Both the position numbers and the translations under genes were made by a program. Below are positions 2,668 to 62,763 of a stretch of DNA of 64,000 bases, in pieces (the first letter of the stretch is position 1; each line of letters starts with the position of its first letter). The stretch lies in NCBI RefSeq assembly GCF_963921235.1, contig NC_086097.1, forward strand, positions 170,936,001-171,000,000. The letters run 5' to 3'. The notes below the pieces were generated by a model, which saw only the letters and a list, made by a program, of their open reading frames with translations, made no database searches and was not told where the DNA came from. Origin of the DNA: Mobula hypostoma. Lineage: Eukaryota.

Positions 2668-2820
2668 ATTCTGCAGAATCTGGAAATCTTGAGTAACACA
2701 CACAAATACCGGAGGAACTCAGCAAGAAAGGCAGCATCTATGAAGGGGAATGAACAGTTGACGTTTCAGGCCAAGTCCCTTCATCAGGATTTGCTGAGTT
2801 CCTCTAGCATTTTGTGTTTG
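2668..2820 (-). mobile_element. Short Penelope terminal-repeat derivative with hammerhead core and a short inverted arm
   Basis: Minus strand 2755-2790 reads atc-CTGATGA-agggacttggcct-GAAACGTC-aactg; 2791-2817 is the reverse complement of about 2698-2725. Confidence 0.7.
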
Positions 2821-3549
2821 TGGATGAAGAAAATAGTGTTGAAGCTATAGGGAAAGTACTTGCAGCAGCATCACAGGCACATAGCATTAGTGACACATTT
2901 TGGATCAAAACATACATTAACTATAAATTATACAAGTAGGTAAATAGCTGAGTTGATGTGTCATTGTCCTGCAAGTTGTTGCAAACATCTGGAGTGAGAG
3001 CATTTGTCTGTGGGGAGACTGTAAGTTAGATAAAGTCCCAGCTCAGTCAGTACTGGGAGCACTTGCTGGATAATTAATGCTGACTTTAATGGCATTTATC
3101 ATTATTAGTAGAGATCCAGCAACTTGAAGTGGGCAAGACACAGCCAGCAATTTTTAACTGGCACTGTGTGTGCAGTTATTTCTGCTGCTCCACTGTTTAG
3201 AAAATCAGATTGCTTGGAACATCCTTGAAGGACAAGCTAGTTTTAGAAAAGTGCGGAGAAGATTAGCTTGATTAATTTCTGGAAATGAAGCATTTCCTTA
3301 AGAGGAATAGTTGGGTCTTTATTCCCTTGAGTTTGAAAGGTTTCACAGAGTAGGTAGAAGTCATTGAGAGCTACAGCTTAGGAACAATTCCATTAGTCCA
3401 GTGAGTCTGTGCCAAATATCATCCACCTGTTTATTCTAATCCTATGTTAATTCCATTTATTATTCTCCATGCTTTTTCATTAATAGTGTGAAATATTTCA
3501 TAATAAAGGAATTACAGGGTAAATATTGACACAAAGATAAGGGGGCATA

Positions 3550-3975
3550 AGAGACTGCAGATGCTGGAATCTGGAGCAAAATTAAAAATTATGGAGGAAC
3601 TCAGCAGGTTGGGCAGCAAGTGTGGAGAGAAATGGACAGGTGACATTTTGGATCGAGACCCTTCATCTGGACTGAAAGAATAGAGGGAGGATAGCTAGTA
3701 TAAAAAGGTGAGGAAAAGAGGGGTTAGCAAGAGCTGCCCAGTGATTGGTAGATGTTGGTGAGGAGGAGATGATTGGTGGGGTACAGTCAGGTGGGGAGGG
3801 AAAAGTGGAAATAATGACTCCTGCCTTTCACCCCTCCTCTCCTGGAGACATATAACACCTATCAGCTCTTGCTTCACACTTCCTCTCAGCTCTCTATACT
3901 GGTAGTCTTCCCTCAACTCTTTCAGTCCAGATGAAGAGTCTCAAACTGAAACATCAAATATTTCCCTCCACAGGT
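3550..3975. mobile_element. Foldback element built from two inverted Penelope-like terminal repeats
   Basis: Degenerate ribozyme-like motif cagtcCAGATGAag.gtctc...aaa on the minus strand at 3637-3678 and on the plus strand at 3919-3958; the internal purine-rich and pyrimidine-rich arms are mutually reverse complementary. Confidence 0.6.
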
Positions 3976-4649
3976 CTGTCCCAAACATAAGGGATTTTAG
4001 AACTGGGTTAAGGGGAAGGATATCCTCAGAATATCTCCCCTCAGAAGATCATTAATGTTTGGGATTCTTTACCCCAGAGAACTGTGGAAACAAAGCCATT
4101 AAAAAAAAGTTGAAACATATCGAATTATATGTATATGGATGGAAATTAGGGGCAGCAAGGATTATGACATCTGACAGGAAAGCAGAACTGATGATAAAGA
4201 TCAGACTAGCCATGGATTTATTGGATGGTGAAGAAGGCTGTGTATGGACAACTTGAGATGAGTTTTACATAAAGCTCATTCATAATGATCAATTTCTCAG
4301 CCAGGGTTCAACTAAAACAGATTGGTGCTCCTGTTCTTCACATCCCTTTCCCATTTCTGTTACACCGTGAGGCAGATTTCTGAATTACTGAGGCACGATA
4401 TGATTACATTAGTGCTGCCCTGTGAATGCTAAGTGTGTGAATTATGTGCCTCCACATTACACACAGCAAGGAGTAAAGACTGGTTGTGGAAAGGTAATTA
4501 CAGTTGTGCTTTTAACAGAGAATCACTCAATGTCCAAACATATCCAGTTTCCATTTGGAACCTCTGAACTGTGATTCCAAATGAGATGAGATGAGATAGA
4601 GGTGATGAACTTGCTGCCGGAGAGGCAAACCAGTTGACCATTTTGGAAC

Positions 4650-5430
4650 TAAGACTGGTATTGGTATTGGTGTATTATTGTCACATGTACCAAGATGCAG
4701 TAAAAAGCTTGTCTGTTCATAGAGGTCAAATCATTACACACTGTATTGAGATAGAACAAGGTAAAATAATAACAGTACAGAATAAGGTGCAAAAGCTACT
4801 GGAAAAGTGTAGTGCAGGAAAATGAAAAAATGCAAGATCATAATGAGGTAGATTGTGAGGCTGAGATTCCATCTTGCCTTATAAGATGTCCAATCAAGAT
4901 TCTGATAACAGTGGGATAGGAAGTAACCTTAAGCCTGGTGGTATGTGCTCTCAGGCTTTTGTATCTTCTGCCTGATAAGAGAGGGGAGAAGAGGGAAAGT
5001 CCAGGGAGGGTGAATCCTTTGATTATGCAGGTTGCTTTACTGAGGCAGTGAGAAACATCAACAGAAACCAGAGAGGAGAGGCTAGTTTCTGTGATGTGCT
5101 CAGCTATATCCACAACTCTGCAGTTTTTTTCAGTCATGTGTGGAGTAGCTGCCATACTAAGCTGTTATGCATCCAGATAGGATGCTTCCCATGGTTCATC
5201 AATAAAAATTGGTAAGGGCCGACAGGGACTTGCTGAATCTCTTTATCCTCCAGTCATTAGAGACATTGGTGATTTTCTTGACCATAATATCAATGTGGTT
5301 GGACTAGTACAGGCTATTCGTGATGCTTACACCTAGGAACTTGAAGCTTTCAATCATCTCAACCTCATCACCATTGACGTAGTAAGGAGCATGTGCACTG
5401 CCCCCCACCCTTTCTGAAGTCATACTTGAT
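4650..5430 (-). mobile_element. Rex1/Babar LINE 3' fragment
   Basis: ORF 4838-5155 contains KATCIIKG...PLLSGRRYKSLRAHTTRLK, the typical Rex1 ORF2 C-terminus. Confidence 0.75.
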
Positions 5431-5519
5431 AAGGTTCATTTTTGTTGAGGAAAGGGATTTGGAACTAGATTGTGTCAATCTGAAACCCTCAAGATGAGCC
5501 ACTGAGTGTGTTGAGGTAG

Positions 5520-6890
5520 ATTTCAGGAAATATAGGCTGGTAAGTCTGACATCAGTAGTGGGAAAGTTATTGGAAGGTATTCTAAGGATCAGATATCTAA
5601 GTATTTGGATAGACAGTGACTGATTAGGGATGGTCAGCTTGGCTTTGTATGTGTGTGGTAGGTCATGTCTTTTTTGAAGAAGTTACTAGGAAAATTGATA
5701 AAGGCAAGGCAGTAGAATTTAATTAGGCATTTTACAAGGTCCTGCATGCAAGGCTGGTCAAGAAGGTTCAGTCGCTCTGCATTTAAATGAGATAATAAAT
5801 TGGATTAGACATTGACTTTGTGGGAGAAGCCAGAGAGTGGTAGTAAATTGTTGCCTCATTGTCTGGAGGCCTGTGACTAGTGAAGTGTCACAGGGATCGG
5901 TGATGGGTCTATTGCTGTTCGTCATCTATATCAACGATCTGGATGATAATATGGTTAACTAGATCAGCAAATTTACGGATGACATCGAGATTGGAGGTGT
6001 AGTGGACAGTGAGGAAGACTACTAGAGATTGTAGTGGGATTTTGGACGAGTTGAAAAAATGGGCTGAAAAAGGGCAGGTGATATTTAATGCATACAAGTG
6101 CAATGAGATGCACTTCCGTAAAACTGACTCGGGTAGGTCTTACACCGTGAACAATAGGGCACAGAAGAGTGCTATAGAACAAAGAGATCTGGGAATACAG
6201 GTCACAGGAATAATTAATCTAAAGTGGTGTCATAGGTCAATAGGATTGTAAGGAAAGCTTTTGGTACATGGTCTTCATAAATCGAAGTATTGTGTACAGG
6301 AGATGGGATGTTATGTGAAGTTGTGTAAGACATTGATGGGGCCTAATTTGGAGTATTTTGTGCAGTTTTGGTCACCTATCAACAGGAAAGATATAAGTAT
6401 TGTTGAAAGAATACAGAGAAAATTTTCAAGGATGTTGCCAGGACTGGAGGACCTGAGTTATAAGGAAAGGTTAGGTTAGGACATTATTTCTTGGAACATA
6501 GAAGACTGAGGAGAGATATGATAGAGATATATAAAATCATGAGGGGTATAGATAGGGCAAATGTAGGCGGGCTTTTTCCACTGAGGTTTGGTGGGACTAC
6601 AACTAGAAGTCATAGGTTAAGGGTGAAAGGTGACAAGTTTAAGAGGAACATGAGGGAAAACTTCTTCACTCAGGATGTCGTAGGATGTGGAACAAAGTGC
6701 CAGCACAAGTGGTGTATATGAGCTTGATTTCAACTTGTAAGAGAAGTTTGCATGGGTACATGGATGGTACAGGTATGGAGGGATATAGTCCTGGTATAGA
6801 TCAATAGAAATAGGCAGTTTCAATGGTTCAGCATGGACTAGATGGGCCACAGAACTTGTTCCTGTGCTGTACTTTTCTATGACTCTATGA
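5520..6890 (+). mobile_element. CR1 LINE, decayed RT and 3' end
   Basis: YRLVSLTSVVGKLLE, VSQGSVMGLLLFVIYINDLD..KFTDD, LEYFVQFWSP, ERIQRKFSRMLPGL; tail ttctatgactctatg. Confidence 0.85.
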
Positions 6891-7364
6891 AGGAACCAAG
6901 GGTTATAGGGATCAGACAAGCTGTGATGTTGTTAAATGGCTGAAATTCTGATAAAAAACAAAATTTGGTGACTTTAACTCAAGGCATATCCATTATAATT
7001 GATTTCTCAGCAAAGGTGCAATCTGGCATCTCATTACAGGTGCACAAAACTTTGACTTGGAGTACAATGTGTAGTTCTGTTTGTCACACCATAAGTAAGA
7101 TATGATTAAGGTAAGGTGAAATACATCTGTGGTGAAGGGATAATTTCAAATGCGATGCTCGGGAAATGATTTTTTTCTATATGGAGAGTGTTAGGAGCCT
7201 AGAATTATGGTGGCAGAGGTAAATAGGACAGAGGTTAGCTCTTAGATAGATACATGAATGTGCGAAGAATAGTGGGATATAGGCATTGTGTAGGCAGAAG
7301 GGATTAGTTTAGGTAGGTATTTATTTAGAGACGTAATTAGTTTGACACACCATCATGGGTCAAA

Positions 7365-8310
7365 GGGCATGTCAGTATGGATTAGCAACAACATCTCTTC
7401 CAAGTTCACCATCAGCACTGAGGCACAAGAAGGCTGTGTGCTTTGCTCCTGATTTACTCACTTTATACCTGTGGCTAAGCACAGCTCCTTTGCTATATTG
7501 AAGTTTGCTGATAACACCATTTTTGTTGGCTGAAACAAAGGTGGTGATGAATCAGCATATAGGAGGGAAATGAAAATCTGTTTGAATGCCACAACAGCTA
7601 CCTCTCAGCCAATGTCAGCAAAACCAAAGAGCTGCAGAGGGAAGGAAAAGAGGTACATGAGCCAGTCCTCATCAGGAAATCAAAGGTGGAGAGGATCAGT
7701 AGCTTTAAATCCCATGGCACTAGGATATCCTGGGACCAGCATACAAGTGCTATCAGAAAGGTGGCACAACAGTACCTCTTTTATTATCTTAGAAGTTCAT
7801 GTAGATTGAATATGTCATCAAAATCGCTAACAAACTTTTATAGATGCACAGTTGAGAGTATCCAAACTGGTTATGCCAAGGCCTGGTATGAGAATACCAA
7901 TGCCCAAGAATGGAGAAGTCTGCAGAAAGCATGGATAAAGCCCTCCCCACCACTGAGCATGTTTACATGGAATGCTACCAGAAGAAAACTGCATTCATCA
8001 AGGACCCCCACCATCCAGACCATGCTCTCTTGCTACTGCCATCAGACAAGAGGTTCAGAAGCCTCCTCCCACACCACCAGGTTCAAGAACAGTAATTACC
8101 CTACAACCATCAAGCTCCTGAACGGGCGAGGATAACTACACTCCCCACAATTCTGAACTGATTCTACATGATTCTGTTGTATTTCTTTATTTTCCTGTAA
8201 ATGCCTGCAAGGAAATGAAACTTAACACGGTCTATGACAACGTATGTATGTACATACTGTATGCATGTGTACATACATATGTACTGTATATGTACATTGA
8301 TAATAATTTT
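7365..8310 (+). mobile_element. Rex1/Babar LINE fragment
   Basis: KFADNT, then ORF 7686-8135 with TNFYRCTVESIQTG..AWY and TTRFKNSNYPTTIKLLN. Confidence 0.8.
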
Positions 8311-8849
8311 TACTTTGTCGTTCCTGTGCTGAACTTTTCTGCTTTTCAATGTTACCTGCTCTTTGTTCTATAGAGGGGATGCAGAAGATGTCCATGTGGA
8401 TGTTCCCGGGATTGGACAGCTTGAATTATAATAAGGGATTAGATAGACCTGAATTATTTTCCCTAAAGTAAGAAGGCCGAAAGGTGACCTGTAGAGGTCT
8501 ATAAAATTATGAGAGGCATAGTTAGGGTAGCTATCACAGTCTTTATCCCAGAGTAGAGGCTGCAGTTTTAAGGTGAGAGGGGAAAAAATGGAAGGGGATC
8601 TGATGAATAAGTTTTTCACAGAAGTTGTGGTAGATATGTGGAGTATGTTTTCAGACAAAGTGGTAGAGGCAGGTACAATTGTAAAGTCTAAAAGACATTT
8701 GGACAGGGATAGGAAAGTTTAGTGGGATATGTGTCAAACACAGTCAAATGGGATTAACATAGTTGGGCATCTTGTTTATCACGGACAAATTGGGCCAAAG
8801 GCACTGCTTCTGTGCTGAATAATGTCAATGAGTCTATTAGACCCCATCT

Positions 8850-9430
8850 TCAATTAGAATTGTAAATGGTTTATTAGTATCACATTTGCTGAAGTACAAT
8901 GAAAATCTTGTTTTCCATACTGTCCACAGTGCATTGAGGTAGTACATGGAAAAATAATAACAGAATACAAAATAAAGTGCAACAGCCACAGGGAAAGTGC
9001 ACACGAGAGAAAATCTGCAGATGCTGGAATCCGAGCAGCACACATAAAATGCTGGAGGAACTCAGCAGGCCAGGCAGCATCTATGGAGAAAAGCATATCA
9101 ATGTTTCAGGCCAAAACCCTTTCACAGGCAGAGAGAATGCAGTGCAGCTAGGCAATAAGGTGCAAGATGATAATAAGGCAAATTGTGAGGTCAAATCCAT
9201 CTTATTACACGAGGGAACCATTCAATGGACTTATAACAGTACAGTAGAAGTTGTCCTTGAGCCTGGTGGTAGATGCTTTCAGGCTTTTGTAACTTCTGCT
9301 CGATGGGAGGAGAAGAAGAAAGAATGTCTGTGGTGGGTGGTAGACAGAATTGATTATGCTGTCTGCTTTTCTGAGCGAGAAATGTAGACAGAATCCATAG
9401 AGGAGAGAAGGTATAGTTTCAAAGGGTGAA
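8850..9430 (-). mobile_element. Rex1/Babar 3' fragment interrupted by a short Penelope-derived insert (about 9006-9128)
   Basis: LLPSSRSYKSLKASTTRLKDNFY on the minus strand; the insert atctgcagatgctggaatcc...gtttcaggccaaaacccttt matches the Penelope terminal repeat. Confidence 0.7.
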
Positions 9431-9481
9431 CCGGCCTCCTGATGCAGCACAATGTGACTTATTTTCACTTTTGTCCCACAG

Positions 9482-9975
9482 TCCTCGTTCTGTTTATTGT
9501 GACTCTGCGCCGACGTAAGAAGGAATCATTGGTATTCGATGAAGAGAAAGACATCAGAGAGAATATCGTCCGCTACGATGATGAAGGTGGGGGTGAGGAG
9601 GACACAGAGGCCTTTGACATGGCAGCTCTGAGGAACCTCAACTTCATTCAGGATGTGAAAACCCGACGAGACGTGACGCCAGAGATCCAGCTGTTCTCAA
9701 AACCGCCCCACAAGATGTCCCCTGAGAACATCATCTTTGGGGAGTTTATCTGGGAGAGGATGAAAAGTGCAGACACTGACCCCAGCGCCCCTCCTTATGA
9801 CTCGCTACAGACCTACGCTTTTGAGGGGAACGGCTCGGTGGCAGAGTCACTGAGCTCCTTAGAGTCCATTAGTTCAGCATCAGACCAGAACTATGATTAC
9901 CTCACTGACTGGGGACCCCGGTTCAAAAAGCTGGCGGACATGTACGGCAGTCCGAAGGACAGTGCAAACTCTTAA
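9482..9975 (+). CDS. cdh7: Terminal coding exon of CDH7-like cadherin: end of TM plus cytoplasmic domain with p120- and beta-catenin-binding motifs
   Basis: Polypyrimidine tract and acceptor ttttgtcccacag at 9481. Reads [15 protein letters not shown]...[31 protein letters not shown]...[10 protein letters not shown]...EFIWER...[24 protein letters not shown]...[22 protein letters not shown], stop TAA at 9973-9975. The [20 protein letters not shown] and EFIWER segments match CDH7 as I recall it; paralog assignment not tested by alignment. Confidence 0.93.
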
Positions 9976-10850: not shown

Positions 10851-12339
10851 GTACCTAGTTCATCAGTGTGCCTTTATTTCAATTTATACCATTCCATTAG
10901 GTTTTTCCCTTGTCTTTATCTTTAGTATTTCCACACACCCAGCTTTTCCCTCTGGGAGGAAAAGTTCAACAACTGGAATTGGATTACCTGTGAATGTCTC
11001 TTTAAGAATGGGTAGAACTGGATACAACCTTAAATTCTGTCCTGATGCTGGGATTCGACACAAAACATTGACTGTTCCTTCACCTCTGCAGATGCTTTTT
11101 GAAGTCTCTTGTGTCTCCATAGAACTCTCAAAGCATGGAATGAGGTTGTTTGGTCCATCTTGCCTATACCAGCTCTTCATTTTTAAGTAACTGTTGAGCT
11201 TCCGATTGAATATTAAACCTGCTTCCATCAGAAAGCTCATAATAAAAAACACCTTTTGGTCAACCCTCTTGTCCCACGGTTTCTGAACATGTTCAGCAAT
11301 TCCTGAGGGTGAACCTTCAACACCTGAGTATTTGGTGCATAACTTTGTGAGTTGCTGGTACAATTCTAAAGCCCTCTTCAAGAAAGCTAATGGTAAACAA
11401 GATTTTTGCCTGGTTTGCACTTCAACATTGGTTGTTGGGATCTTTCAGGAAAGTAGCATTGAGGCATAAGTCAAGCACAAAGTTAAGGATCAATGGAGCA
11501 GTCTGGACCTTGCCTCAGAGAGTGTAAGGGAGGTATGATCAGTGCTAGAATTGTTAGTCAGGTCCATAGGCTATGAACAGGGAAAAAAATCAACAAAATG
11601 AATTTCCGCAGAATATTTCCATGCCTTTCCATTCAGATATTTCCAGAAATTAAGTGAAATGGGCCTTCAGTTCAACTGGTCCAAGCCAACCAAAATGCCC
11701 ATCTGAACTAGTCTTATCTGCCTGCATTTGGCCCATATCCCTTTGAACCTTCTGTATTTGACCAAGTGTCTTAAAATTTTTAGTGTACCTGCTTCAACTG
11801 CTTCCTCTGGAAGTTCATTTCATGTGCAAATCGCCCTCTAAGTGAAACGGTTGCTCCTCAGGTTCCTCTTAAATCTCTCACCTCTCATCTTAAATCTATG
11901 CCTTTTAGTTCTTGATATGCCAATCCTGGTAAAAAGATTGTGGACGTTCATCCTAGCCATGCCACTCGTGATTTCATATGTCTTTGCCGGATCATCCCTT
12001 ATTCTCTTCGGCTCCAATGAATAAAGTCTAGCCTGCTCAACCTCTCTTTATAATGAGTGTTACTGAACAGAGGGAACTTGGGGAAGAAGTATCTAGTGTC
12101 GTGAAAATAGGAGCTCGGGTAGACAAAGTATTGTGAATGGTAAATGGCATAATTTTCCTCATTGGCAGAGGCACTGAGCATAAGATTTGGGAACCATGTT
12201 ACAAAACATTTGGTAGGCTGCACTTGGAGCATTGTGTGCAGATCTGGTCACCACACAAGAGGAAGACATGATTAAGCTACAGTAGGTGCAGAAAAGGTTC
12301 ACAAGGTTGTTACCCAGATTGGAAGTCTTTTTATTTGGA

Positions 12340-15840: not shown

Positions 15841-16907
15841 ACAATAAAAATATCATAGAGTCATAAAACACTATGATACAGGCCCTTCAGCCCATGATGA
15901 ACTATAATTCTGCCCATTCCCATCGACCGGCATGTGGACCATAGTTCTCCATACCCCTCCCATCCATATATTTATCCAAACCTCTTAACTGTTGAAATTG
16001 AACCTGTTGGAGCTTATCCACATTACTCGTCCCCTCTTTCTCCTTAGGCTCAAGCCTCAGGCAAAGAAGAGAGCATTGCAAGCAAAGCAACATCTGATAT
16101 AAGCATTACCATTGAAAGCTGGCTGTAAACAATACCTCACTCTGTAGTTTGTGGGGAGGCCACCTCCATGATGTCAGTTTTCACTGTTAGCTGTTGCCCC
16201 AGAGTCTTCGTGCAAATGGGCATCACGGTCTGCCTGAATGAGTTGGGATGAAAGGACCTTTGATCCTGTCATTTACTGATTCAAAAATGAAAGGAGTGAG
16301 AAGAGGAGGAATATATGGGAAGACAAGCCTGCAACAATCTGTTGGAGGTGTGCAGTAGGTCAAGCAGCATCTGTTGGGGAAATGGAATTACTAATGTTTC
16401 AGGTTGAAATCCTGCAGTGGAGATGTGAGATGTCCAGTATAAAAAGGAGGGTGGGAGGGCTGATTGTGGACTGGGACAAGGTGAACAGTGGTGGGCAGAT
16501 AGAGCCTGATATAGGAGAGGGAAGGATAGATGGAAGGTGGTGGCAGAAAAGAAAAGAGAAACAGATAGAAGGAGGTGGAGGGGGAGGAAGGTGAAGAAGG
16601 CTGGGAAGGGAAGTTAAGGCTGTTTCCTTTAGTATGACAGCAGAAAATATTGGAAACACTCAGCAGGCCGGTTAGCATCTTTGGGAAACAATACAGTTAT
16701 GTTTCAGGTCAATGTATCAGAACTGGGAAGGGGAATTTTACTTAGTGATGCAAAGGTTACATGAGAGAATTAAGAGATGTACTTGTAGCCTGGGGAAAAG
16801 TACACACTCAGGACAACAAATACTTTTTTAGGTTTTAATTCCTTTTCTGTTTTAGATGTTTAAGTGCCAGAAGAGGGTCGCGAAAGAAAACGATCAAACT
16901 TAGAACC

Positions 16908-17763
16908 AGACAAGAGGAATTTTGCAGATACTGGAAATTCAAGCAACACAAAAAGTTGCTGGTAAACGCAGCAGGCCAGGCAGCATCTCTAGGAAGAGGT
17001 ACAGTTGATGTTTCGGGCCGAGAACCTTCGTCAGGACTAACAGAAGGAAGAGTTAGTAAGAGATTTGAAAGTGGGAGGGGGAGGGAGAGATCCAAAATGA
17101 TAGGAGAAGACAGGAGGGGGAGGGATGGAGCCAAGAGCTGGACAGGTGATTGGCAAAGGGGATATGAGAGGATCATGGGACAGGAGGACCAGGGAGAAGG
17201 AAAAGGAGGGGGGGAACCAGAGGATGGGCAATGGGTATAGTCAGAGGGACAGAGGGAGAAAAAGGAGAGTAAGAGAAAGAATGTATGTATAAAAACAAAT
17301 AGCGGATGGGGTATGAGGGGGAGATGGGGCATTAGTGGAAGTTAGAGAAGTCAATGTTCATGCCATCAGGTTGGAGGCTACCCAGACGGAATATAAGGTG
17401 TTGTTCCTCCAACCTGAGTGTGGCTTCATCTTTACAGTAGAGGAGGCCGTGGATAGACATGTCAGAATGGGAATGGGATGTGGACTTAAAATGTGTGGCC
17501 ACTGGGAGATCCTGGTTTATTGCAGAAATGAGTTTGGTGAGGCAGGAGCAAGCTGAGACAATAGGTCTGCCAGGACAGGCAGGTTTGTGGATCTTGGGTA
17601 GGAGGTAGAAACGGGAAGTGCGAGGTGTGGGAACTATAATGTTGGTAGCAGTGGATGGGAGATCCCCTGAGCGGATATTGGCGCTCCCGATGTGGCCTTC
17701 TTTATATTGGCGAGACCTGACGCAGACTGGGAGACCGTTTTGCTGAACACCTACGCTCTGTCT
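16908..17763 (-). mobile_element. Rearranged Penelope-like element: terminal repeat, GIY-YIG C-terminus, RT fragment and an inverted GIY-YIG piece
   Basis: Minus strand: DLPVATHFKSTSHSHSDMSIHGLLYCKDEATLRLEEQHLIFRLGSLQPDGMNIDF (17330-17512) and RFYLLPKIHKPACPGRPIVSAC (about 17530-17670). Plus strand 17680-17763: SRCGLLYIGET*RRLGDRFAEHLRSV. Confidence 0.88.
17002..17039 (-). ncRNA. Minimal type I hammerhead ribozyme motif in the Penelope terminal repeat (CpG-decayed)
   Basis: tagtc-CTGACGA-aggttctcggccc-GAAACATC-aactg. Confidence 0.6.
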
Positions 17764-19360: not shown

Positions 19361-19884
19361 TGAACAACAACCTCACTGTTAGCAAAACAAGAGTTGGTCA
19401 TTGATTTCAGGAAGGGTTGGTGCATTTTCCACTTACATCAATGGTGCTGAGATCGAGACGGCTGAAAGTTTTAAGTTCCTCAGAGTGCATTATACCAATA
19501 GCCTGATCTGGTGAAGCCAAATAGACGTCACCACTAATTACCACTTGTATACAAGGACACTGAGGTCTCTTTAAAACATCAACATCTCCTGATATATCAC
19601 CAATTTAAAAAGAAACACTCTGCTTCTTTAGCTTATGCACCAAAGTGTATGGCCACACATTTTTCCACATTGTATTCGAGTTTTCACAGAAAAAATGTTT
19701 TCATATTTCCTTAGAAGCCTTTTTACATATTCCTCCCTACTCTCAGACCCATTTAACTTTGTATTATTGGCAACTTTAGAAATTTGATATTTGGACCTTT
19801 CAGTCAAATTACTCATAAACATTGTGAGTAACTAGGACCCATGCCCTACTCTTCTAGACACAAGAACACGAGAACCTATCATCA

Positions 19885-20014
19885 AACAACAGGAATTCTG
19901 CAGATACTGGAAATTCAAGCAACACACATCAAAGTTGTTGGTGAACGCAGCAGGCCAGGCAGCATCTCTAGGAAGAGGTGCAGTCGATGTTTCAGGCCGA
20001 GACCCTTCGTCAGG
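19885..20014 (-). mobile_element. About 130-bp Penelope terminal-repeat insertion with an 11-bp target-site duplication
   Basis: ACCTATCATCA at 19874-19884 and 20015-20025; the interior is near-identical to 16908-17036 and 62628-62765. Confidence 0.85.
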
Positions 20015-20016
20015 AC
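19981..20016 (-). ncRNA. Minimal hammerhead ribozyme motif
   Basis: gtc-CTGACGA-agggtctcggcct-GAAACATC-gactg; stem I GTC/GAC and stem II AGG/CCT. Confidence 0.65.
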
Positions 20017-22539
20017 CTATCATCAGTCTGGTTTCAACCTGAAACTCTGACCACCCGTTTCCCTCCACGTCATGATGCTGCTCCAGCTACTGAGATCCTC
20101 CAGCAGTCTGTTTGTTGCTCAACACTTAATGGACAGTTAGACAGGTGCATGGATAGGAAAGGTTTACAGGGATGTGGGCTAACTGTATATAAATGAGACA
20201 AGCTTAGTCAGCAATGATGAGTTGGGCTGCAGGGAATGTTTTCATGCTGTATCTCTATGGCATTTTGATTCTATAAATGAATCTCTATGACGGTTACATG
20301 AGCTGAAAGCGAATATCACGACTGGCTAAGGGAGCTTCGAGCTTCCAATTGTTACTAACAGATGAAGAGCTACCCTTGCACATCAATGTGAAGTTGCGTC
20401 TGATCTTTTCCTTATATGACACTTCACTGCAGAAGGCTTCACACTGCAGTGCAGGTTAGAGGGAGACAAACCAAGAGGCAGATTTCAGAGAATGAAACAA
20501 TAGAACTATGATCAGAGTTAAAAGAACAAGCAAAATAAAAAAAATATGGTTCGAATTTAATTCCATCTGCAAAATCACCATTACACCTAAAAAGATATTT
20601 AAAAGATAAAGACACCTATCCATGATTTTTGTGGTTATTGATAGCATGCCACATCACAATGTCAAATAGCATTGTCCATTCTTCCAAGTATACTATATGT
20701 GCCTTTTGATGTATAAATTGTTTCCATCTTCAGTCTGATTAGAAAGTTTCACCGAGTGGGAGAAGAGACAAGAACCAGGAATGGAGTACCAGAGGTGGAC
20801 TAAATTATGAGAAAAATATATTTGCATTGATGCCATAATGAGTTCCTCCGGCAATAACTCTTTATTAAATCCTTCTTTACCTATTAAATGGAGAACAAAT
20901 GCTCGATATAAAATGTAAGTTTTGTTTTCCAATTTTACTAAATTGTTAAACTGGGATAGTTTGTAAATTATCCCAGCAGTCTCCTTTCACCATCTACAAA
21001 GGAACTAATGCTTCATTAGTGAACACAAAATCACAGTTGTAACCTATGGTTATCACACAAAGACAAATGCAATTACACCAGCTTTCTACATCAGTGTGAA
21101 ATCACATCAGTACCAGGTCACAGAACAGGACTTCTGCTCTGATTGATTTTAGAAGCAGACACACAACATGCACATTAAAAATATAAGTTAAATATAAATT
21201 ATACAAAATTATACAGGAAAAAACACAATTCAAACAAAAAAAAAGTCCATTGCAGTGTCATAGTGGTCAAGGTGGTTATAATGTTGCTAGACGAAGATAG
21301 CAATCAGGGTTGTCTAGGTTGTCTATATCTGAGTAGTTGAAGGGAAGCAGCTGTTCTTAAACCTGGGATAGTGTGAGGTAGTCAGGCTCCTCTACCTGCT
21401 GCCCATTGGCAGATGGCATGGTCCAGATGGTGGGAATCTTTGATGATGAATGCTGTCTTCTTGAGGCCTTGCACCCTCAGATAATACCAATGGTGGGGAG
21501 GGAAGCACTCATAATATATTTTACTGAGGGCACTACTCTCTAAATTCTTACTTTCTTGTGCTTTCATTTTCCTATATCATGATGCAACCAGTCAAGATGT
21601 AAGAGAGAAGTTAGAGGGAAGGGGATTGATCTGAGAGCTGGCATGAACTCGAAGGGTAGAATAGTCACATTAGGAAAGCTGAGACACCAGACTGAAGCAA
21701 CTCTGGCTCGGCAGGATCATGCATCCAGCTGTTCAAGCAGCCAAGCTCGAGAAACAAGTTCAAGGTCGAAGACAAGACCAATAAAGCAGGTCTGTCAGGT
21801 TACTGCATTTCACAATTTTAAACAAAAATTCCTTTGCTTGAGGGAATGGGAAGAAACTAAGAAGAGGAGAGAAAGAAAGTTTTAAATAATACAGGATACT
21901 GACAGTATGTCCACAACACTCCAGAGGAGACAAGCCTCTCCATCACAACCTTTCAGAAGCCACAACCAACTGTTTAAAGTGATCATCCAAAACAGGGTGT
22001 GGAGATGGCCAAGTAGAGCAAGATATGCCTGTGAATTGATTCCTGTCATGGAGCTGATCAGGCTTGGAAACTGGTCAGCCAGCAACCATGAAGGGAGAAA
22101 GGCAGATTAAGGCTTCATTTTGATACATTGAAAACACTGAATCAGAAACAGGTTTATTATCATTGACATATCACAAAACTTGTGGCAACAGAAAATTGCA
22201 AAAAAAAAGCTATAAGTTACAAAAAAAAAGATAATGCAAAAGATAAAAAATGAGGTAGTATTCATGGGTTCAGAAATTTGATGGCAGAGGGGAAGAAGCT
22301 GTCCTTAAACAATGAGTGTGCATCTTCAGGCGAACCCCCTTCCTAATGTAATGAGAAGAGTATATGTCCTGGACAGTGAGGGTCTTCGGAGTAGGAAATA
22401 GGAGTAGGCCTAGGTCATTTGGCTCTTGAATATGCTCTGCTCTTTAATGACCATCAAAATTCAATATCCTTTTCCAGCTTTCTCCCTATAGTTAATGAAT
22501 GTGTTCCAGAAGCTAAGAATAATAAACACAAGAAATTCT

Positions 22540-23790
22540 TCACATGCTGGGAATGCAAAACAAAGCATACCAAAATGCTGGAGGATCTCAGCAGATCTGG
22601 CAGAATCAAAGGAAATGAACAAGCAGTCAATGTTTCGAGCTGAGGCCCGACTTCAGGACTGGAAAGGAAGTGGGTAGATGCCAGAATAAAAAAGGTGGGG
22701 GGGGGAGGAGAAGGAGGTTAGCTAGAAAGTGTTAGGTGAAGCCAGGCAGGAGGGAAAGGAATTTGAAAAGAGCGGAAAGTGGACTATAGGAGAAAGAGAA
22801 GGGGAAGTGATAGGCAGATGAGAAGAGGTAAGAGGCCAGAATGGGAATAGAAGAATAGGGGAGGGGTGGGACTATTTTACCAGAAGGGGAAATCAGTATT
22901 CATGTCTAGAGATTGGAGGCTACCCAGATGGAATATAAGCTGATGATCCTCCACCCTGAGCATGGCTTCACTGTGGCACATGAGGAGGTCATGTACCGAC
23001 ATGTCGGAACAGGAATGGAAATCAGAATTGAAGAGTTTTGCCAGAGGAAAACTCAGCTTTTGGTGAATGGAACAGAGGTGCTAAACAAAGCGGACCCCCA
23101 ATTTATAACGGGTCTTACCAATGAAGAGGAAGTCACATTGAGAGCACCAGATACAATAGATAACCCCGGCAGATTTGCAGGTGAAGTGTTGCCTCATCTG
23201 GAAGGATTGTTTGGGGCTCTGAATAGAGGGGAGGGAGGAGGTAAACAAGCAGATGCAGCGCTTTGGCCACTTGCAGGGATAAGTGCCAGGCGGTAAGTTT
23301 GTGGAGGGACGAGTGGACGAGGGAATCGCAGAGGGATCAATCCCTGCTGATAGCGGGGGCAGGGGAGTAGAGGGGGGGAGTAAAGATGTGTTTGGTAACA
23401 GGATCACTTTGGAGGCCGCGGAAATTGCAGAGGACAATGTATTGGATGTGGAGGCTTTTGTAGTGGTGGCTAAGGACAAGAGGAACTCCATCACTGTTAA
23501 GGCAGCGGGAAGCTGAGGTGCGCATGAATGTTCAGGAAATGGAGGAGATGTGGGTGAGGGCAACATCAACGGTGAAGGAATAGAAACCACATTCTTTGAA
23601 GAAAGAGAACATCTCTGATGTCCTGGAAAGGAAAGCATCATCCTGGGAACAGATGAGGCAGAGAAAAAGGAAATGAGAAAAGAGAATAGTATTTTTACAG
23701 GAGGCAGGGTGGGAAGGGGTATAGTCAAGACAGCCATGGGAATTGGTAGGTTTATTAAAGACGTCAGTTGATAATCTATCTCCAGAGAGT
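22540..23790 (-). mobile_element. Penelope-like element, 3' half (RT C-terminus, GIY-YIG endonuclease, terminal repeat)
   Basis: LSTDVFNKPTNSHGCLDYTPSHP, FTCKSAGVIYCIWCSQCDFLFIGKTRYKLG; degenerate ribozyme motif cagtc-CTGAAGT...GAAACATT-gactg at 22624-22662. Confidence 0.85.
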
Positions 23791-52242: not shown

Positions 52243-55069
52243 GCACCCAACTCCTGTCCATGTGCCCAGGATGCAGAATAAACCCATGCTGGTGAACAAT
52301 ACATCGATAGGCCTGTGATGTGATCAATGTGTTGCAAATAAATCCGTGAACAAATTAAAGAAAAGCCAGCTTTGAGGTGTTGCGATTTGAGAGATCAAAT
52401 ATAAAGTGAGAGAAGATGGTTATAGGCAGAAGCCTTAATAGTGTTGATGTGCTGATGGTGCTTTAGGAGCAAGTCCATGGCTCTGTGAAAGTGGCTGCAC
52501 ATATTAATAAGATATTACGGAATGAACATTGCATGCTTTTATTAGACGAAGCACTGGGCTCAAGGGTAAAGAATGTAATGTTGCCTTATAATAGAACTCT
52601 AGTTAGTCCCCATCTGGAGTACTGCATTCAGTTCCGATCATCTCATCATAGCAAAGCTGTCAAGGCTTTGGAGATGGTGCAGAAAAGGTTTACCAGGATG
52701 CTGCCTGGATTAGAGGGCATATACTATAAACACAGGGGTTGGACAAACTTGGCTTGTTTTCTCTGAAGTGGTGGAGGCTGAGAGAAGATCTGATTTTTGA
52801 ATTTATAATCAAAGAATGTATAAATTATACAACTTCAAAGGTTTCAAAGGCACATTTAATGTCAGAAATGCATACAATATACATCCTGAAATGTTTTTTC
52901 TTCGCAACCATCCACAGAAACAAAGGAGTGCCCCAACGAATGAACAACAGCTAAATGTTAGAACCCCAAAGTACCCCCCCAGCTCCCCTCCCTCCTGAGC
53001 ATAAGCGGCAGCAATCAATGAATCCCCTCCCCCAACCTGCAAAAAAAAAGCATCAGCACCCACCACCAAGCTCTCAAGCATGCAGCGAAAGCAATAGCAA
53101 AGACACAGACTTGCAGAGCTCCAAAGACTCTGCTTTCACCCAGTATTTGACATACCACAGGTTCTCTCTCTCCCTACTGAGGGAAAAAGCGATGTCTCCG
53201 TTTCAAAGAGATGTCACCTTGAGACTTATAAACTTCTAAGAGTAGATAACTGGTATCTTTTTCCTAGAGCCAGTATGTCAAATATAAAGATGAAGATTAA
53301 GTATATTTGTCATATGTACATTGAAACATAACCACGAAATATATTGTTTGGTCAATAAACAACACAGTCCAAGAATATGCTGGGGGCAGCCTGCAAGTGT
53401 AGCCAACAGAGCACATCCAGAAATTACTACCCTAAACTGTACATCTTTTCGAATGTGGCTGGAAAGTGGAGTACATGGAGGAGACCCACACGGTCACAAA
53501 CTCCTTACAGGCAGTGCCAGTAATTAAGCCCTGAATCACTGGCACTGTAAAACCCTGTGCTAACCACAAAGCTACCATGTCCCCTGTATATTATATTAAT
53601 TCTAGAGGGATTCATTTAAGGTGAGCGGGGATAAAGTTGAAAGCAGATGTGCAGGGCAATTTTTCACTCAGACTGATGGGTGCCTGGTGTGGTAGTGGAG
53701 GCAAATACAACAATGGGTATTTTAAAGATAGACACATGACTGTGTGGAGAATGGAGGGATGGTGGACATTGTGTAGGCAGAAGGGATTAGTTTAGATAAA
53801 TACTTAGATACTGGTATAGTTAGTTTGGCACTACATTGCAGGCTGAAGGGCCTTTTCTATGTTCTGCTTTCTGAATGAAGTCTGAAATGGGTCACTTTGG
53901 TAACGCACAATGTAGGTGGGTTTGCTGAGTTCTTCCAGCATTTTGTGTGGGTTTTTTGGATTCCCAGCATCTGCAGATTTTCTTTTGCTTGACATAGGTG
54001 GGATGACACCTCCAGCGTTCAGTTTTAACTGAATTCCTTACTCAACTAGGGCAGTTTAGCACTTCTAGTCATAGATAATAAAGCTCCCAACCCAAGGCAC
54101 TTCCAATGTTACTGTCACTTCTACGAACATGGAAGTGTGCGTGTGTGTGTGTATAATGTATGATGAATAGAAATGGATGGTTAATGGTGATGTGGACTCA
54201 GTGCCAGCGGAACTCAACAAGTCAGGTAGCTTCTATGGAGGCTAATGAAGTGTCGATGTTTCAGGCTGAGACCTTTCAGGGCTAGAAAGGAAGGGATAAA
54301 AGAAAGCCAGAATAAGAAGGCGGTGGAAGGAGGGAGGTGATATGTAGAAGAGCTAAAGGGCTGAGAAGAAGGAACCTGATAGTAGATGACAGTGGACCAT
54401 GGAATAAAGGGAAGTAGGTGGAGAACCAGAGAGAGGTGATAGGCAGGTTATGAGGGCAAGGGAGGGGCCTGTTTCCAAATTGTATCTCTCTAGAAATCTC
54501 TAACTCCAGTAATTGAAATGATTAAAGCCATTTGATAAAATGCAAATAAATAAACACATAAGTTCCCACATCCTTCCCCAGAATCTTGTCACCCTCCAGT
54601 TAAATAGATCAGGGATATTGCACGAGTTCAACCTCACCTGATATAAGATAGTAGCAGACTCCCCACCACCAGCTTTTAGGTGAAGTTCAATGGATGACCA
54701 TATTGGAAGAAATAATTTGTAAGTCAAGTGAAGCATATTGCTGTGTGCTCAAGTACAGTGAGGTACAGCAGTGTTCATCCAATGACTTCTGTGTATTCCA
54801 GATATGACCCAGATTGGACAGTCATGTGTTGTGCTTATTTTGCAGTTGTGTGAGACTGTCACTGACATTCTGCAATAATCAATCTTCAGGTCTCAAGATG
54901 TACATAGAATGTGTATTGTCTTGCAAATAATCACTTTGTTGAAGATATTTCTGAGTATATCAATAATGTGTCTTGATGTATTTTGGTAGACAATATGAAA
55001 AATCATTGCTCTTTATAGAGTCACAGAGTCACGTAGAAGAAACAGGTCCTTCAGCCCATCACATATATG

Positions 55070-57222
55070 CTAACCAAGTGCTAACCAAGTACCATATCCG
55101 ATGTGGACTTTGGTGACAATGGATTTCCATATAGACCTATCCTTCGTTTTTTGGATGACTTCCATTTCCTCGATGTGTAGCCACCTGGCTATGCTTTTGA
55201 TGTACATAAGCCAAAGTCTTCCTCTAGGTTTGCTCCCCTCAATCTTTCCAGAGAGTATGAGTTTTTCTAGTTCATCTTTCCGCATGACGTGTCCTAGGAA
55301 TCTGAGTTGTCTTTCTTTTATGAGTGATCGAACTGCTTGGGCTCTTCTGAGAACTTCTTCATTTGATGTGTGTGTGTGTGTCCATGATATTTTTAACATT
55401 CTCCTGTAGAACCATAATGCAGTTGCTTCTAGTCGCTTTTCCATTGCTGGAGAAATGATCCAGCATTCACTTCCATAAGTCAGGATAGAATAAATGTACC
55501 ACTGCAGTATTCTGTTTTTAGTGTATGTGCTCATCTTTCTGTCTGTTAATATGGTCTTCATTTTTTGGAAAACTTCTTTCGCCATTGCTATTCTGTATTT
55601 GATATCTGTGTCGCACCTGCCATTACTTGTTAGGCTGCCAAGGTATTTGAATTTGTTGACTTGTTTGATGTTTGTATTTCTGATCTTGATCAAACATTGT
55701 GGGATGTTTGTCTTTCTGGAGATGACCATGCTTTCTGTCGTCTTGGTGTTGATTAAGAGGCCTCTGCGATTACTTTCTGCTGCCACTATAGTGAGTAGTT
55801 CTTGAAGTTTTGTTTCTGAGTCAGCTATTAGTACGATGTTATCAGCATATCTGATGTTATTTATATTATGGCCTCCAATTGGGAATCCTTTGATGTCTTT
55901 GAAACTTCTTAAGATATTTTCACTATACAGGTTGAATAAGTCTGGCAAAAAGACACAACCTTGCCTGACTCCTCTCATGATATTCACATACTCACCCACT
56001 TCTTCTATTCTGATGGATGCTGTCTGGTTCCAGTATAAGTTTCTCAAGAAACGTATATCTTTCCCATCTATGTCAAGATCTTGAAGCATTTCCAGAAGAT
56101 CTTGCTGTCTGACAGTGTCAAAAGCTTTTGTATAGTCAATGAAACATAGGTAGATGTCTTTTTGTACCTGGATGGCTCGTTCACAGATCATCCATAGCAT
56201 GAAAATTGCATTTCTGGTTCCAGTGTTTTCCACAAAGCCGCATTGTTCTTTACTGATGTCTGGTTTTATACAGTGTCTTGTTCTCATCGCGATTACTCTG
56301 AGAATAATTTTTGTCACGTGGCTCATCAGGCTTATTGTACGATGTAACTCGCATTCTGTTGCTCCCTCTTTCTTTGGAAGTGTGACGAACACTGATTTAC
56401 TTAAATCATCAGGTATCTCCCCATGATCATAGATTTCATTTGCTATTTCTGTTATTTTCTCTATTCCAAAATCTTCTAAGGCCAGTATCATTTCAACAGC
56501 GATGTTGTCTGGACCAGTTGTTCTGTTATGTTTTGTTTTATTTACGGCCGCTCGAATTTCTGATTTTAGAATGCTAGGTCCTTCAAGATTCTTCTTCATG
56601 TTCGGTTTTTCTCCTCTTTGGTCTTCAAAAAGTTCTTTTATATATTCTGTCTATCTGTTTAGGATTTCCTCTTTGTTCATAATGTTCTTTTGCCTTGATG
56701 CATCCACTTGCTGAGCAAGGTAATTTCCCTGTTAGTTCTTTAATCTTATTGTGCATCAACTTTGTTCCAGAGTTATGGGTTTGTAGCATTTCTATCTTGG
56801 AGCATTTCTCACTTAGCCATCTGTCTTTAGCTTCTCTGCATTTTCTTTTTATTGTCTTATCAAGATGTTTGTATTCTTCGCTGTCTCTTAGTTTGATTGT
56901 CTGTTTTTGTTGCATCAATTGTATTATATCTTCAGTTATCCATTTCTTCTTACTTTTCCGTTCTTTTCGTGGGATGGTTTCTTTTGCAGCTACAACCATG
57001 GATTCCTTCAGTATGTCCCAGGAAGATTTGCCTCCTTTATCCTGCATCAATTGAAAAGTTTTTCACCTTGATTGTGTATTCTGTTTTCAGATGAGGGTTG
57101 TTTTGTAGTTGTTGATAATCCAGTGATTCTGATCTTTTTGGTTTCTTTAATTTTCTCATCTTTATTTTCATTTTGCAAATGACTGGTACGTGGTCGTTTC
57201 CACAGTCTGCTCCAGGGTAGCT
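55070..57222 (-). mobile_element. RTE-clade (BovB-like) LINE, 5'-truncated, with a 509-codon open RT frame
   Basis: End of endonuclease YPGADCGNDHVPV, then TGPDNI, HRTISLMSHVTKI, EQCGF..NTGTRNAIF, CFIDYTKAFDTV, GVRQGC..PDLFNLYSE, NNIRYADNIVL (YADD to YADN), FKYLGS, RQLRFLGHVMRK; frameshift near 56625. Confidence 0.93.
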
Positions 57223-57513: not shown

Positions 57514-57514
<1 letters not shown>

Positions 57515-57570: not shown

Positions 57571-57574
<4 letters not shown>

Positions 57575-59965: not shown

Positions 59966-60864
59966 CTGTGGAAGGCACTAGCAGTCTGCTAACAATTCAA
60001 GAGTGTTAGGGGGTAGAAGTGAGTGTAGTTGCTATCACTAAGGAGAGGGTGCTAAAGAAACTGAAGGGTCTGAAGGTAGATAAGCTACCTGTATCAGATT
60101 GACTACACCCCAGTGTCTGTAAAATGCTCTTTTAAGAATCATTAGACTCTGAAATGGTTCCAGAGGACTGGGAAATTGAAAATTTCACCCCACTCTTTAA
60201 GAAAGGAGGAAAGCAGAAGAAAGGAAATTATAGGCCAGTTAACCTGACCAGTGGTTGGAAACATGTTGGAGTCTATTACTAAGGATGAGGTTTCAGGGTT
60301 CTTGAAAGTAATGATAAAATAGGCCAAAGTTTCTTATGTCAAAGTCTGCTTGACAAACTTCTTGGAATTCTTTGAGGAATTAACAGGCAGGAAAGACAAA
60401 GGAGAGTTGGTGGATTTTTTTTTTGAATTTTAATAAGGCTACTTAACAAGCTAAGAGCCCATGGTATTACAGGAGAGATACTAGTATGAATAGAAGACTG
60501 GCTGATTGGCAGGAGGCAAAGAGTTGGAATATAGGAGGCCTATTCTGGTTGGCTGATGGTGACAAGTGGTGTTCTGTAGGCCTTGATATTGGGATTGTTC
60601 CTTTTCATGTTATATGTCAATGATTTGGTGATGGAATTGATGGCTTTGTGGCTACGTTTGTCGATGATACAAAATAGATGGACGGGCAAGTAATATTGAG
60701 GAAGCCGGGTCTGCAGAAAGACTTGGACAGATTGTGAGAATGGGCAAAGAAGTGGCAGATGGAGTAAGGTGTGCAGAAATGTACGGTCATACAGTTTGGT
60801 AGAAGGAATAAAGGTGAAGGCCATTTTCTAAACTGGGAGAAAAGTCAAAAATCAGAGGTGCAAT

Positions 60865-62535
60865 TGTATTATTTTTTGTAACTCGAAACCATAAAGCTAA
60901 TTGAAAGGAAAAAGACAGGCAGAGGGTATCAATCTACCTTTCGTACTGGGTTGATGGTAACCTTAAAACAAATCCTGACAAATCCATTCTTCTTGGCTAC
61001 TGGGACCACTGGTATTGCCCAGGGGCAATTTTTCCAATAGGCTTTACCTTTTCGCCAGTATAAGGTCTTAGCTGGGTGTCTACAGACTTCAGTTTAGAAT
61101 ATTTGGAAGGCCATTCAAATTCATTTTGTGGAAGGAATGAAACAGCTGAGCAAGTGTTCAATTCCACTTTAATTAATTTGATATTTACTTCTGGAATAAG
61201 CTCTATTGCTTGCCTATTGTTAGTTTTCATATTTAAATCTTAAGGCTAGCCAGTCCTGTGTTACTCTCATCATTATCAGATTTTTCATCAACAAAAAAGA
61301 TCAGTAGTCTTTCTGAAACTGCATTTTCACTTTTTAACTTTTTCTCTTTTCTGTGCAATTCATTTATTTTTGTATGCCCGATGTACTCTTTGTATGTGTC
61401 CTACTTTGTTGCATTTTCTGCAAGTTTTTCCTTTAAATCTGTATTAAACTGGTGTATGTTAGACCCTGCCGCAACAGTAACATAAGTTTATCAGCCAGGC
61501 AGGTTTCTGCCTAGAGCCGATTCTGCAATTTTGTTCACATTCACTTTCACTCCTAACTATAACTCAGTTGTATCTCTTCATGTGGTTTCCATTGAAACAT
61601 CAATTTCTAATGCTCTTTTAAATGTAAGTTGCGCTTCAGTTAGGAGTCATTTGTGAATGCTTTCTTGTAGGACTCCACAAACTAAATGATCTCTCAGTAC
61701 ATCATTAAGCCCATCACTTAACTGGCAATAATCGGACAATCTCTTCAATTTTGCCACGTGTACTGAAATGGACTCTCCTTTTGGCTTCTACTTATGAAAC
61801 CTAAAGTATTCTACAATCAAAATGGGTTCAATTCTAAATGTTCCTGTATTATATCCATAATATCAACAAAGCTCATTTCGGCTGATTTGGTTGGAGCTGT
61901 TAAACATCGAAACAAACTTTATGCCTTTAAACCCTAATGCCCTCAACAAAACTGGTACTTGTTTCTCATTGGCTGTTGTATTTGCTTTATAAGGCTGCTT
62001 AATTAACTCAGTCAGCATATCCCAGTTATTTGTCGTGTAATCAAACGTGTCAATTTGTCCAATGTAGCCAGCCATTTCTGCTCTTTTTTAAAAATCATTA
62101 TTATCACCTGGTGTTTATTGTTTATGAACCAGAGAATTTTTTAATTTTCTGACGCCTTTTAAACTTGTTTATCTTCCCTTTCGTGAAGAAAATATGCTAC
62201 TCCAAAGAAAAAGAAAGTTCTGTGCTTTTATAAAACTTTAACATCTTGATGCACTTCAACAGAAAGATAGTTGTCTCTACTTAGTTTAAAAATTTCTCAT
62301 TGACACTTATGTTTTGTAACTCTAAAAGGAAAAAAGACTGGAGCCCAGAACTTGTTTTAGTTTCATTTTTACTTTAAGTAAGGTATGTATATATGCATGA
62401 TGTGGTAGGGTCATGACCAATTTACTTATCTTTATATATAACCCGTAATGATTTATTTAAATGAAGAAGAATGTTTATTTAAGCAATATATTTACAATGT
62501 TACTCAAATACTACTGAAATATTAAATACAAAACA
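60865..62535 (-). mobile_element. Internally deleted Gypsy LTR retrotransposon (5' LTR, gag, protease, start of RT, tip of 3' LTR)
   Basis: 5' LTR about 62307-62535 starting TG; gag MAGYIGQIDTFD...LRDHLVCG, zinc knuckle CRKCNKVGH, degenerate protease ELNTCSAVS, RT start FVRIC.FKVTINPV; the LTR-end sequence ttttgtaactc...aaaggaaaaagac is repeated at about 60872-60920. Confidence 0.8.
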
Positions 62536-62556
62536 AAAGGAACTTGGGAGTCTTTG

Positions 62557-62763
62557 CAACACACATCAAAGTTGCTGGTGAACGCAGCAGGTCAGGCAGC
62601 ATCTGTAGGAAGAGGTGCAGTCGACGTCCTGACGAAGGGTCTCGGCCTGAAACGTCGACTGCACCAGGCACCTCTTCCTACAGATGCTGCCTGGCCTGCT
62701 GCGTTCACCAGCAACTTTGATGTGTGTTGCATGAATTTCCAGCATCTGCAGAATTCCTGTTGT
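62557..62763 (+). mobile_element. Foldback Penelope-derived insertion with a 13-bp TSD
   Basis: TTGGGAGTCTTTG at 62544-62556 and 62764-62776; arm 62556-62627 is the reverse complement of 62652-62730 apart from a 7-nt insertion and one mismatch. Confidence 0.9.
62626..62661 (+). ncRNA. Minimal type I hammerhead ribozyme with intact catalytic core
   Basis: GTC-CTGACGA-AGG-gtctcgg-CCT-GAAACGTC-GAC; predicted cleavage after C62656; palindromic ACGT in place of a closed stem III. Confidence 0.75.

Follow-up and report, generated by a model that had tools for sequence, protein, structure and literature searches.

Minimal hammerhead ribozyme motifs (min-HHRs) have been described in the pseudo-long terminal repeats (pLTRs) of metazoan Penelope-like elements (PLEs), so that the link between motif and element is published (Cervera and De la Pena, 2014; PMC4209133). 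The available text of that work lists fish elements of the Xena, Poseidon and Neptune types as carriers and gives about 4,000 such motifs for coelacanth and 9,000 for Xenopus tropicalis. Here, a stretch of 64,000 nucleotides from Mobula hypostoma (NC_086097.1, positions 170,936,001 to 171,000,000), in the following called the window, was analyzed for a dispersed family of such motifs. These motifs are very probably the 3′ ends of 5′-truncated copies of a 3.5-kb Penelope-like lineage. In its terminal repeat lies a minimal type I hammerhead for which cleavage is predicted only in dimeric form or with the help of a protein; the source motif was likely selected, and the inserted copies decay neutrally. 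The family is thus of a kind already described, to which it adds a new and very abundant member. Its one unusual aspect is the copy number, as dispersed min-HHRs from truncated PLEs have already been described. Literature searches, which left aside most subscription papers, Repbase/Dfam and supplements and hence do not establish absence from print, returned no report of the family in cartilaginous fish.

Like the published min-HHRs (PMC4209133), the motif has a type I core without loop III, palindromic positions 15.2–16.2, an unpaired base before stem II and a short stem I, and it occurs in the two repeats that flank full elements, but mostly singly, scattered with truncated copies. It differs from the schistosome families in a stem II of 4 bp instead of 7–8 bp. 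Furthermore, the population is homogeneous, whereas the one described there is highly variable, the youngest subfamily has a U at position 11.1, and no cartilaginous fish is named in the available parts of that paper (supplements aside). With the Neptune and Nematis types of PLE, as far as they are described in the available text of Craig et al. (2021; bioRxiv 10.1101/2021.04.23.441226), the element shares a reverse transcriptase (RT) followed by a GIY-YIG endonuclease at the C-terminus in one open reading frame (ORF), the DKG motif, a CX2-5CxxC linker, partial tandems, inverted 5′-truncated neighbours and an optional tail of 30–40 bp, but it has more copies than the most abundant Naiad, for which nearly 37,000 are given.

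In the lizard Anolis carolinensis, the Poseidon element PAc (Frangieh et al., 2024; PMC11167929) likewise has a hammerhead at the junction of pLTR and ORF, two 3′ ends that define a tail, and uncut RNA as the apparent template. It belongs to a different clade by the linker motif, and its frame begins at stem II, whereas the open frame of the Mobula family, which is known from sequence alone, begins in or after the tail. Very many type I hammerheads in a vertebrate genome are also known from non-LTR retrozymes, e.g., in axolotl (PMC7229834), where canonical motifs are arranged in short tandem non-coding repeats, in contrast to the minimal, dispersed motifs tied to a coding element in Mobula. 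Retrozymes are defined by non-coding units of a few hundred bases that are repeated head to tail and each contain a type I hammerhead. Such arrays were not found in the loci examined (no genome-wide search was made); same-strand neighbours in these loci are mostly whole 3.5-kb coding units, and close pairs are mostly inverted.

Window copies and the Penelope-like element

All eleven stretches reported in the sequence-only reading could be located at the given coordinates and strands by a direct sequence check. The motif family is real at all 11 sites, but its members are not free-standing: the motif forms the first 36 nt of a conserved element end of about 135 nt, and the roughly 100 nt located 3′ of it also align, at 68–95% among the better-kept window copies. 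A first profile comprising motif and tail was built from nine of the 11 sites. It recovered all of them, including the two left out of training (3919, E 1.3e-6; 11037, E 1.2e-7), and the reversed window yielded nothing below E 6.8. The second-round profile gave 17 window matches at E<1e-3 and no match at E<1 in a reversed control of 864 kb. It added four copies, namely 16333–16416 (−), 16641–16712 (−), 20030–20121 (+) and 53922–53987 (+), as well as two fold-back arms at 2788–2824 (+) and 62544–62627 (−).

For the element itself, 20 genome loci were retrieved by searching the DNA with a piece that encodes part of the N-terminus. In five of these loci, same-strand hammerheads 3.5 kb apart flank the coding region; locus L055 contains three tandem hammerheads, and locus L059 a stop-to-stop frame of 1043 amino acids. 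The unit consists of a hammerhead, a single ORF encoding RT and C-terminal GIY-YIG, a pyrimidine-rich untranslated region (UTR) and a second hammerhead. Pfam detected RVT_1 (E 0.0037) and GIY-YIG (E 0.0011), both below the curated cut-offs, and the DKG motif, the RT motifs, the CX2-5CxxC linker and the endonuclease motifs occur in this order in all seven ORFs inspected. Among 7,993 candidates scored in a homologue search, 495 proteins reached E<=1e-30; these bear PF00078, often together with PF01541, and the best named homologues (71% and 67%) are both from a bamboo shark, which points to a cartilaginous fish as the probable host. A sequence search of the PDB gave no matches. In total, the features of an endonuclease-positive PLE were found: an RT–GIY-YIG ORF, pLTR tandems, 5′ truncation, inverted neighbours and the optional tail of 30–40 bp. 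A CX2-5CxxC linker between RT and endonuclease marks Neptune and Nematis (bioRxiv 10.1101/2021.04.23.441226, as far as available); the element is likely of the Neptune type.

The sequence-only reading had tied the motif to Penelope by two copies attached to coding remnants. This tie was borne out by contiguous coding remnants in the window and by the complete hammerhead–ORF–hammerhead units elsewhere in the genome. With tblastn, ORF pieces were detected in the window only at 17338–17762 and 22889–23768, adjoining the copies at 17002 and 22624. Pfam reported no relevant family in any of the five remnant pieces, which were identified by alignment to intact units. The first of the two copies (16906–17518, −; 91% to the young unit) comprises the C-terminal endonuclease coding piece, the pyrimidine-rich 3′UTR, the hammerhead and the tail. 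It is joined to an RT coding piece at 17521–17677 (−), recognized by alignment to intact units, and to an inverted piece of the GIY-YIG motif region at 17680–17762 (+), which belongs to the same rearranged insertion. The second is an old copy (22524–23788, −; 69% DNA identity to the young unit) with remnants of thumb, Cys linker (decayed, 23081–23300) and GIY-YIG, followed by the 3′UTR, a decayed hammerhead and the tail. Judged by their sequence, all 11 sites are best read as 3′ ends, i.e., pLTR hammerhead plus tail of about 100 nt, of one Penelope-like lineage.

The remaining copies are of different age and completeness. The copy at 62626–62765 (+) is young and 5′-truncated and comprises the full tail and a minimal hammerhead, in which C3 is at 62629 and the cut is predicted to follow 62656; its inverted fold-back arm covers 62556–62627 (−), and the insertion is framed by a 13-nt target-site duplication starting at 62544 and 62764. 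Two further young copies carry the change G16.2>A. One of them (19884–20016, −) starts 3 nt before C3, has the full tail and is flanked by an 11-nt duplication starting at 19874 and 20015; the other (36203–36305, +) starts 5 nt before C3 and has the short 3′ end without tail. An older, decayed copy in opposite orientation (20030–20121, +; E 2.2e-10), which had not been listed before, abuts the former. This arrangement agrees with an insertion within older copies of the same lineage or next to them (review: PMC6765202). In the copy at 2657–2790 (−), which belongs to an older subfamily and has the short inverted arm at 2788–2824 (+), the core boxes are intact and stem I is broken. The old copy at 3547–3678 (−) and the one at 3919–3975 (+) both have an A at core position 4; the sites 3637 (−) and 3919 (+) show a 72% inverted match to each other and look like two arms of one head-to-head insertion. 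Decayed copies are located at 9003–9128 (−, older, with tail), 11037–11096 (+, strongly decayed) and 54152–54286 (−, with a pyrimidine-rich upstream remnant). Not listed previously were the decayed copies at 16641–16712 (−) and 16333–16416 (−) and the tail-only fragment at 53922–53987 (+).

The differences among the younger copies had been described as mostly CpG transitions. When the five young copies were compared with the youngest type over 37 nt, 14 differences were counted. Eight of these are indeed CpG transitions; one represents the older C11.1 state, and five are of other kinds, two of them at the junction base.

Anatomy of the hammerhead and its subfamilies

Positions are given in the standard hammerhead numbering (C3, G8 etc.). 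In the young motif, the two core boxes are present, the 4-bp stem II is preceded by an additional base (between 9 and 10.1), and stem I has 4–5 bp; a palindromic ACGU (15.2–16.2) replaces helix III, and there is no loop III. This anatomy matches the min-HHR of PMC4209133. A search with a minimal-hammerhead descriptor, as had been suggested, gave 17 matches in 600 kb of random sequence, four in 200 kb of neighbouring sequence and none in reversed controls. Within the window, just one of the 11 sites complies with the full descriptor, namely the copy at 62626, which is the sole site keeping every core base plus the palindromic helix III.

For the comparison of subfamilies, 172 copies were clustered on downstream columns only. 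The differences between subfamilies fall on N7, the bulged base (9.1), loop II and wobble-compatible positions of stem II. N7 is also the most variable core position among 113 unselected copies (0.58, A in 19), and its neighbours reach at most 0.14. This position-specific variation suggests that selection likely maintained the motif in the source elements. In an old subfamily, core position 4 is an A (six of the 12 copies of two clusters). The corresponding U4A form has 106 matches in the genome, in 30 of which the 3′ arm of stem I has the majority form. This subfamily (L123–L152; in the window 3637–3678 and 3919–3958) has U-A instead of U-G in stem II and is otherwise compatible with a hammerhead.

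Several results weigh against the main explanation. No hammerhead family was among the 27 Rfam matches at E<=5. The covariation that had been proposed as a check of the stems was not observed: among 14 hand-picked related rows, none of eight pairs showed a two-sided change and pairing equalled that of shuffles. The pair changes are one-sided only (G-U/A-U), and as the stems hardly vary, the power is low. Minimum-energy folds of the monomer and of a two-copy cofold differ from the hammerhead fold; an alternative rod is predicted at −10.7 kcal/mol, whereas stems I and II by themselves reach −6.7 kcal/mol. When 20 upstream bases are included, a predicted hairpin covers the first core box. Moreover, the old subfamily appears to have been amplified with A at core position 4, and in inserted copies the tolerated change N7 C>T is 1.6-fold commoner than G8>A.

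Part of this evidence would also be expected if the motif was derived from a hammerhead but is non-catalytic in this lineage and was kept as a protein-binding, promoter or splice-acceptor-adjacent element. The lack of compensatory pair changes, the core hidden in predicted folds and the U4A subfamily, for which no precedent was found in the available text of PMC3088659, are in favour of such a motif, as are copies that span the cut site without a pile-up of ends there and the unimpaired in vitro insertion of hammerhead mutants of the lizard Poseidon element (PMC11167929, available text). However, the variation between subfamilies lies mostly at positions at which a hammerhead tolerates it (N7, 9.1, loop II, G-C to G-U, U-G to U-A). 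In addition, the available texts report that the related lizard motif was cleaved with protein present (PMC11167929) and that a natural U4C variant still supports viroid infectivity (PMC3088659). A motif kept for such a non-catalytic role is considered unlikely. Cleavage that depends on a partner would be in agreement with the published relatives of the minimal hammerhead, which are given as inactive as monomers and weak as dimers (PMC4209133), and with the lizard motif, which needed protein for cleavage (PMC11167929).

Ends of the copies and proposed mode of insertion

A random sample of 600 kb was taken at regular positions on 13 large contigs. In this sample, the unit is covered 0–1 times close to its 5′ end, and the coverage climbs to 32 where the hammerhead is located. 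For the mapping of ends, 138 motif matches were used, of which 126 passed a filter of 85% identity (12 dropped); both arms of fold-backs were counted separately. The 3′ ends form two peaks about 35 nt apart, with 55 of the 126 at +84 to +105 and 63 at +128 to +132 from C3. These peaks match the 30–40-nt tail that separates two RT start sites according to the available text of PMC11167929. An inverted neighbour was found beside 44 of the 126 copies. Target-site duplications were detected in the two window copies described above (11 nt and 13 nt) and in none of four others tested.

On the 5′ side, 51 of the 126 ends are located within −30 to +3 of C3, and the adjoining 410 nt contain 32. Because the motif served to select these copies, 5′ ends further downstream are excluded from this count. 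In an unselected sample, six of 33 young copies (three of them in the window) start at −5 to +3, four further downstream and none at −31 to −100. In a separate coarse binning, 17 of 90 starts fall into one 50-nt bin. The 5′ ends pile up at the front edge of the ribozyme; the distance to the predicted cut is about 30 nt. Candidates for the origin of this pile-up are the start of the RNA, a splice acceptor after the pyrimidine tract, which has a parallel in the Penelope of Drosophila virilis (PMC4209133, available text), and the predicted upstream hairpin; in the parts of the literature examined, the pile-up at the front edge lacks an explanation. In L044, the hairpin (2600–2625) is predicted to pair bases just upstream of the motif with the first core box, and several fold-back junctions are located at about −13, inside its inverted match.

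By analogy with PAc (PMC11167929, available text), insertion would proceed by target-primed reverse transcription starting at either of two sites in the tail, and any copy longer than about 100–135 nt would pass through the hammerhead. A start of reverse transcription in the tail would account for the large numerical excess of the motif over the ORF. Any copy that extends across the cut site implies a template RNA that was uncut there or re-ligated. Most likely, the ribozyme would slowly trim tandem or read-through transcripts, with the palindromic helices III of two copies pairing, as can be deduced from the available text of PMC4209133. Contigs of four RNA runs (X1, X5, X9, X19) overlie the motif and are uninformative on the ends or the level of the RNA.

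The pile-up of 5′ ends could also indicate that the short copies of 100–135 nt are a separate non-autonomous element, SINE-like or retrozyme-like, which has its start at the hammerhead and makes use of the protein of Penelope. The 51 ends close to C3, the six unselected young copies beginning at −5 to +3, the target-site duplications of some short copies and the derivation of retrozymes from pLTRs (bioRxiv 10.64898/2026.07.22.740005, available text) agree with this. However, the 5′ ends are continuous out to full length, short and ORF-bearing copies share the same two young clusters, and head-to-tail arrays of short units were absent from the loci examined (not searched genome-wide), which makes an independent short element improbable compared with truncated copies of the coding lineage.

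Copy number, decay and significance

The 31-nt motif has 50,271 exact matches in the genome of 3,475,679,493 bases; 98,092 matches were obtained when CpG decay was allowed, and 81,769 (23.5 per Mb) with a pattern requiring core, helix III and family-type stems. The reversed control gave 0 in each case. In the 600-kb sample, 128 profile matches were found, of which 88 span the motif, and 5.2% of the bases align to the unit. Extrapolated from these large contigs only, about 500,000 motif-derived sites including decayed copies can be estimated. The very large population of ribozyme motifs expected in the sequence-only reading is thus supported by genome counts, as motifs and not as demonstrated ribozymes. 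The exact and the core-intact counts exceed the minimal-hammerhead counts in the reports compared (4,000–9,000), in a comparison that is rough because the methods differ. For axolotl, 126,247 canonical hammerhead motifs are given in the available text of PMC7229834, corresponding to about 4.5 per Mb (28.21 Gb; bioRxiv 10.64898/2026.07.22.740005), so that the density in Mobula is about five times higher.

It is tentatively proposed, and at present rather doubtful, that this is the highest hammerhead density among the reports compared (about 24 core-intact copies per Mb) and that the copies record an undescribed step of Penelope insertion, in which reverse transcription begun in the tail frequently halts or turns back at the ribozyme's front edge and not at the cut site, the reason being an RNA start, a splice or a hairpin of the RNA at this edge.

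Once inserted, the copies seem to decay mostly like neutral DNA, and most of them are decaying fossils. All core bases are kept in 34 of the 113 sampled copies, 25 of which also keep the helix III pair. Along young copies, CpG decay is symmetric (C>T 212, 4.9%; G>A 235, 5.5%; p 0.30). Genome-wide, single mutants in the youngest background amount to 2,950 for N7 C>T, 1,795 for G8>A, 2,202 for C15.2>T and 2,479 for G16.2>A. About 40,000 unmutated copies were estimated by scaling from 80 of the first 100 exact-match rows, counted by eye, and relative to this estimate G8>A accounts for about 4.5%, against a CpG background of 4.9–5.5%. The helix-breaking G16.2>A is not depleted compared with the wobble-keeping C15.2>T. 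As mutants that break the ribozyme are about as frequent as tolerated ones, the dispersed motifs do not behave as a working population. The excess of T7 fits T7 as the state of older source elements; weak selection on the copies could also explain it.

That the host recruited a large part of the scattered motifs as functional ribozymes for the processing of its transcripts is most improbable: the 81,769 core-intact copies, the 1.6-fold rarity of G8>A relative to N7 C>T and the four window sites that lie immediately upstream of the last exon of a cadherin gene (+ strand), probably in its intron, would agree with it, but G16.2>A is no rarer than C15.2>T, the core is kept in only 34 of 113 sampled copies, the full descriptor is matched by one of 11 window sites, and single min-HHRs are reported without cleavage in vitro (PMC4209133, available text).

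A sense-strand excess of G>A in small samples near the 3′ end (UTR 6 vs. 30, tail 6 vs. 23) was considered as a sign of cDNA editing or of selection for dead ribozymes. As a general effect it was rejected, as the ORF has none (73 vs. 75, 123 vs. 106) and the palindromic helix III CpG shows only a 1.13-fold excess genome-wide. With L044 as reference, G>A predominates over C>T at the CpG sites −283, −133 and +66 in 3′UTR and tail (11 vs. 2, 19 vs. 4 and 23 vs. 6), which possibly reflects subfamily structure.

Besides the copies of the lineage, the window contains the last coding exon of a classical cadherin gene at 9430–9975 (+; Pfam CADH_Y-type_LIR, E 1.5e-33); of the four motif sites upstream of it, three are antisense. 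A frame of 526 amino acids with a reverse transcriptase domain (55070–56650, −; RVT_1, E 6e-27) resembles an RTE-type LINE. Remnants of other non-LTR elements were found at 39820–40515 (−; RVT_1, E 4.6e-20), 37219–37938 (−; ALKBH8_N, E 2.3e-12) and, by eye, 7563–8135 (+). A degenerate TA/TG microsatellite of 1.4 kb at about 33120–34530 accounts for spurious Rfam miRNA matches and for long low-complexity frames.

The role of the hammerhead in PLEs is treated as unresolved in the available texts of PMC11167929 and bioRxiv 10.1101/2021.04.23.441226. The tens of thousands of near-identical young copies in Mobula, together with intact units and older subfamilies, provide statistical power on the starts and ends of the template as well as on the core changes that the source element tolerated. 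They also illustrate that raw genome counts of ribozyme motifs can consist mostly of retrotransposon fossils. If true, the spread of the U4A subfamily would demonstrate that elements can be amplified in vivo without canonical cleavage.

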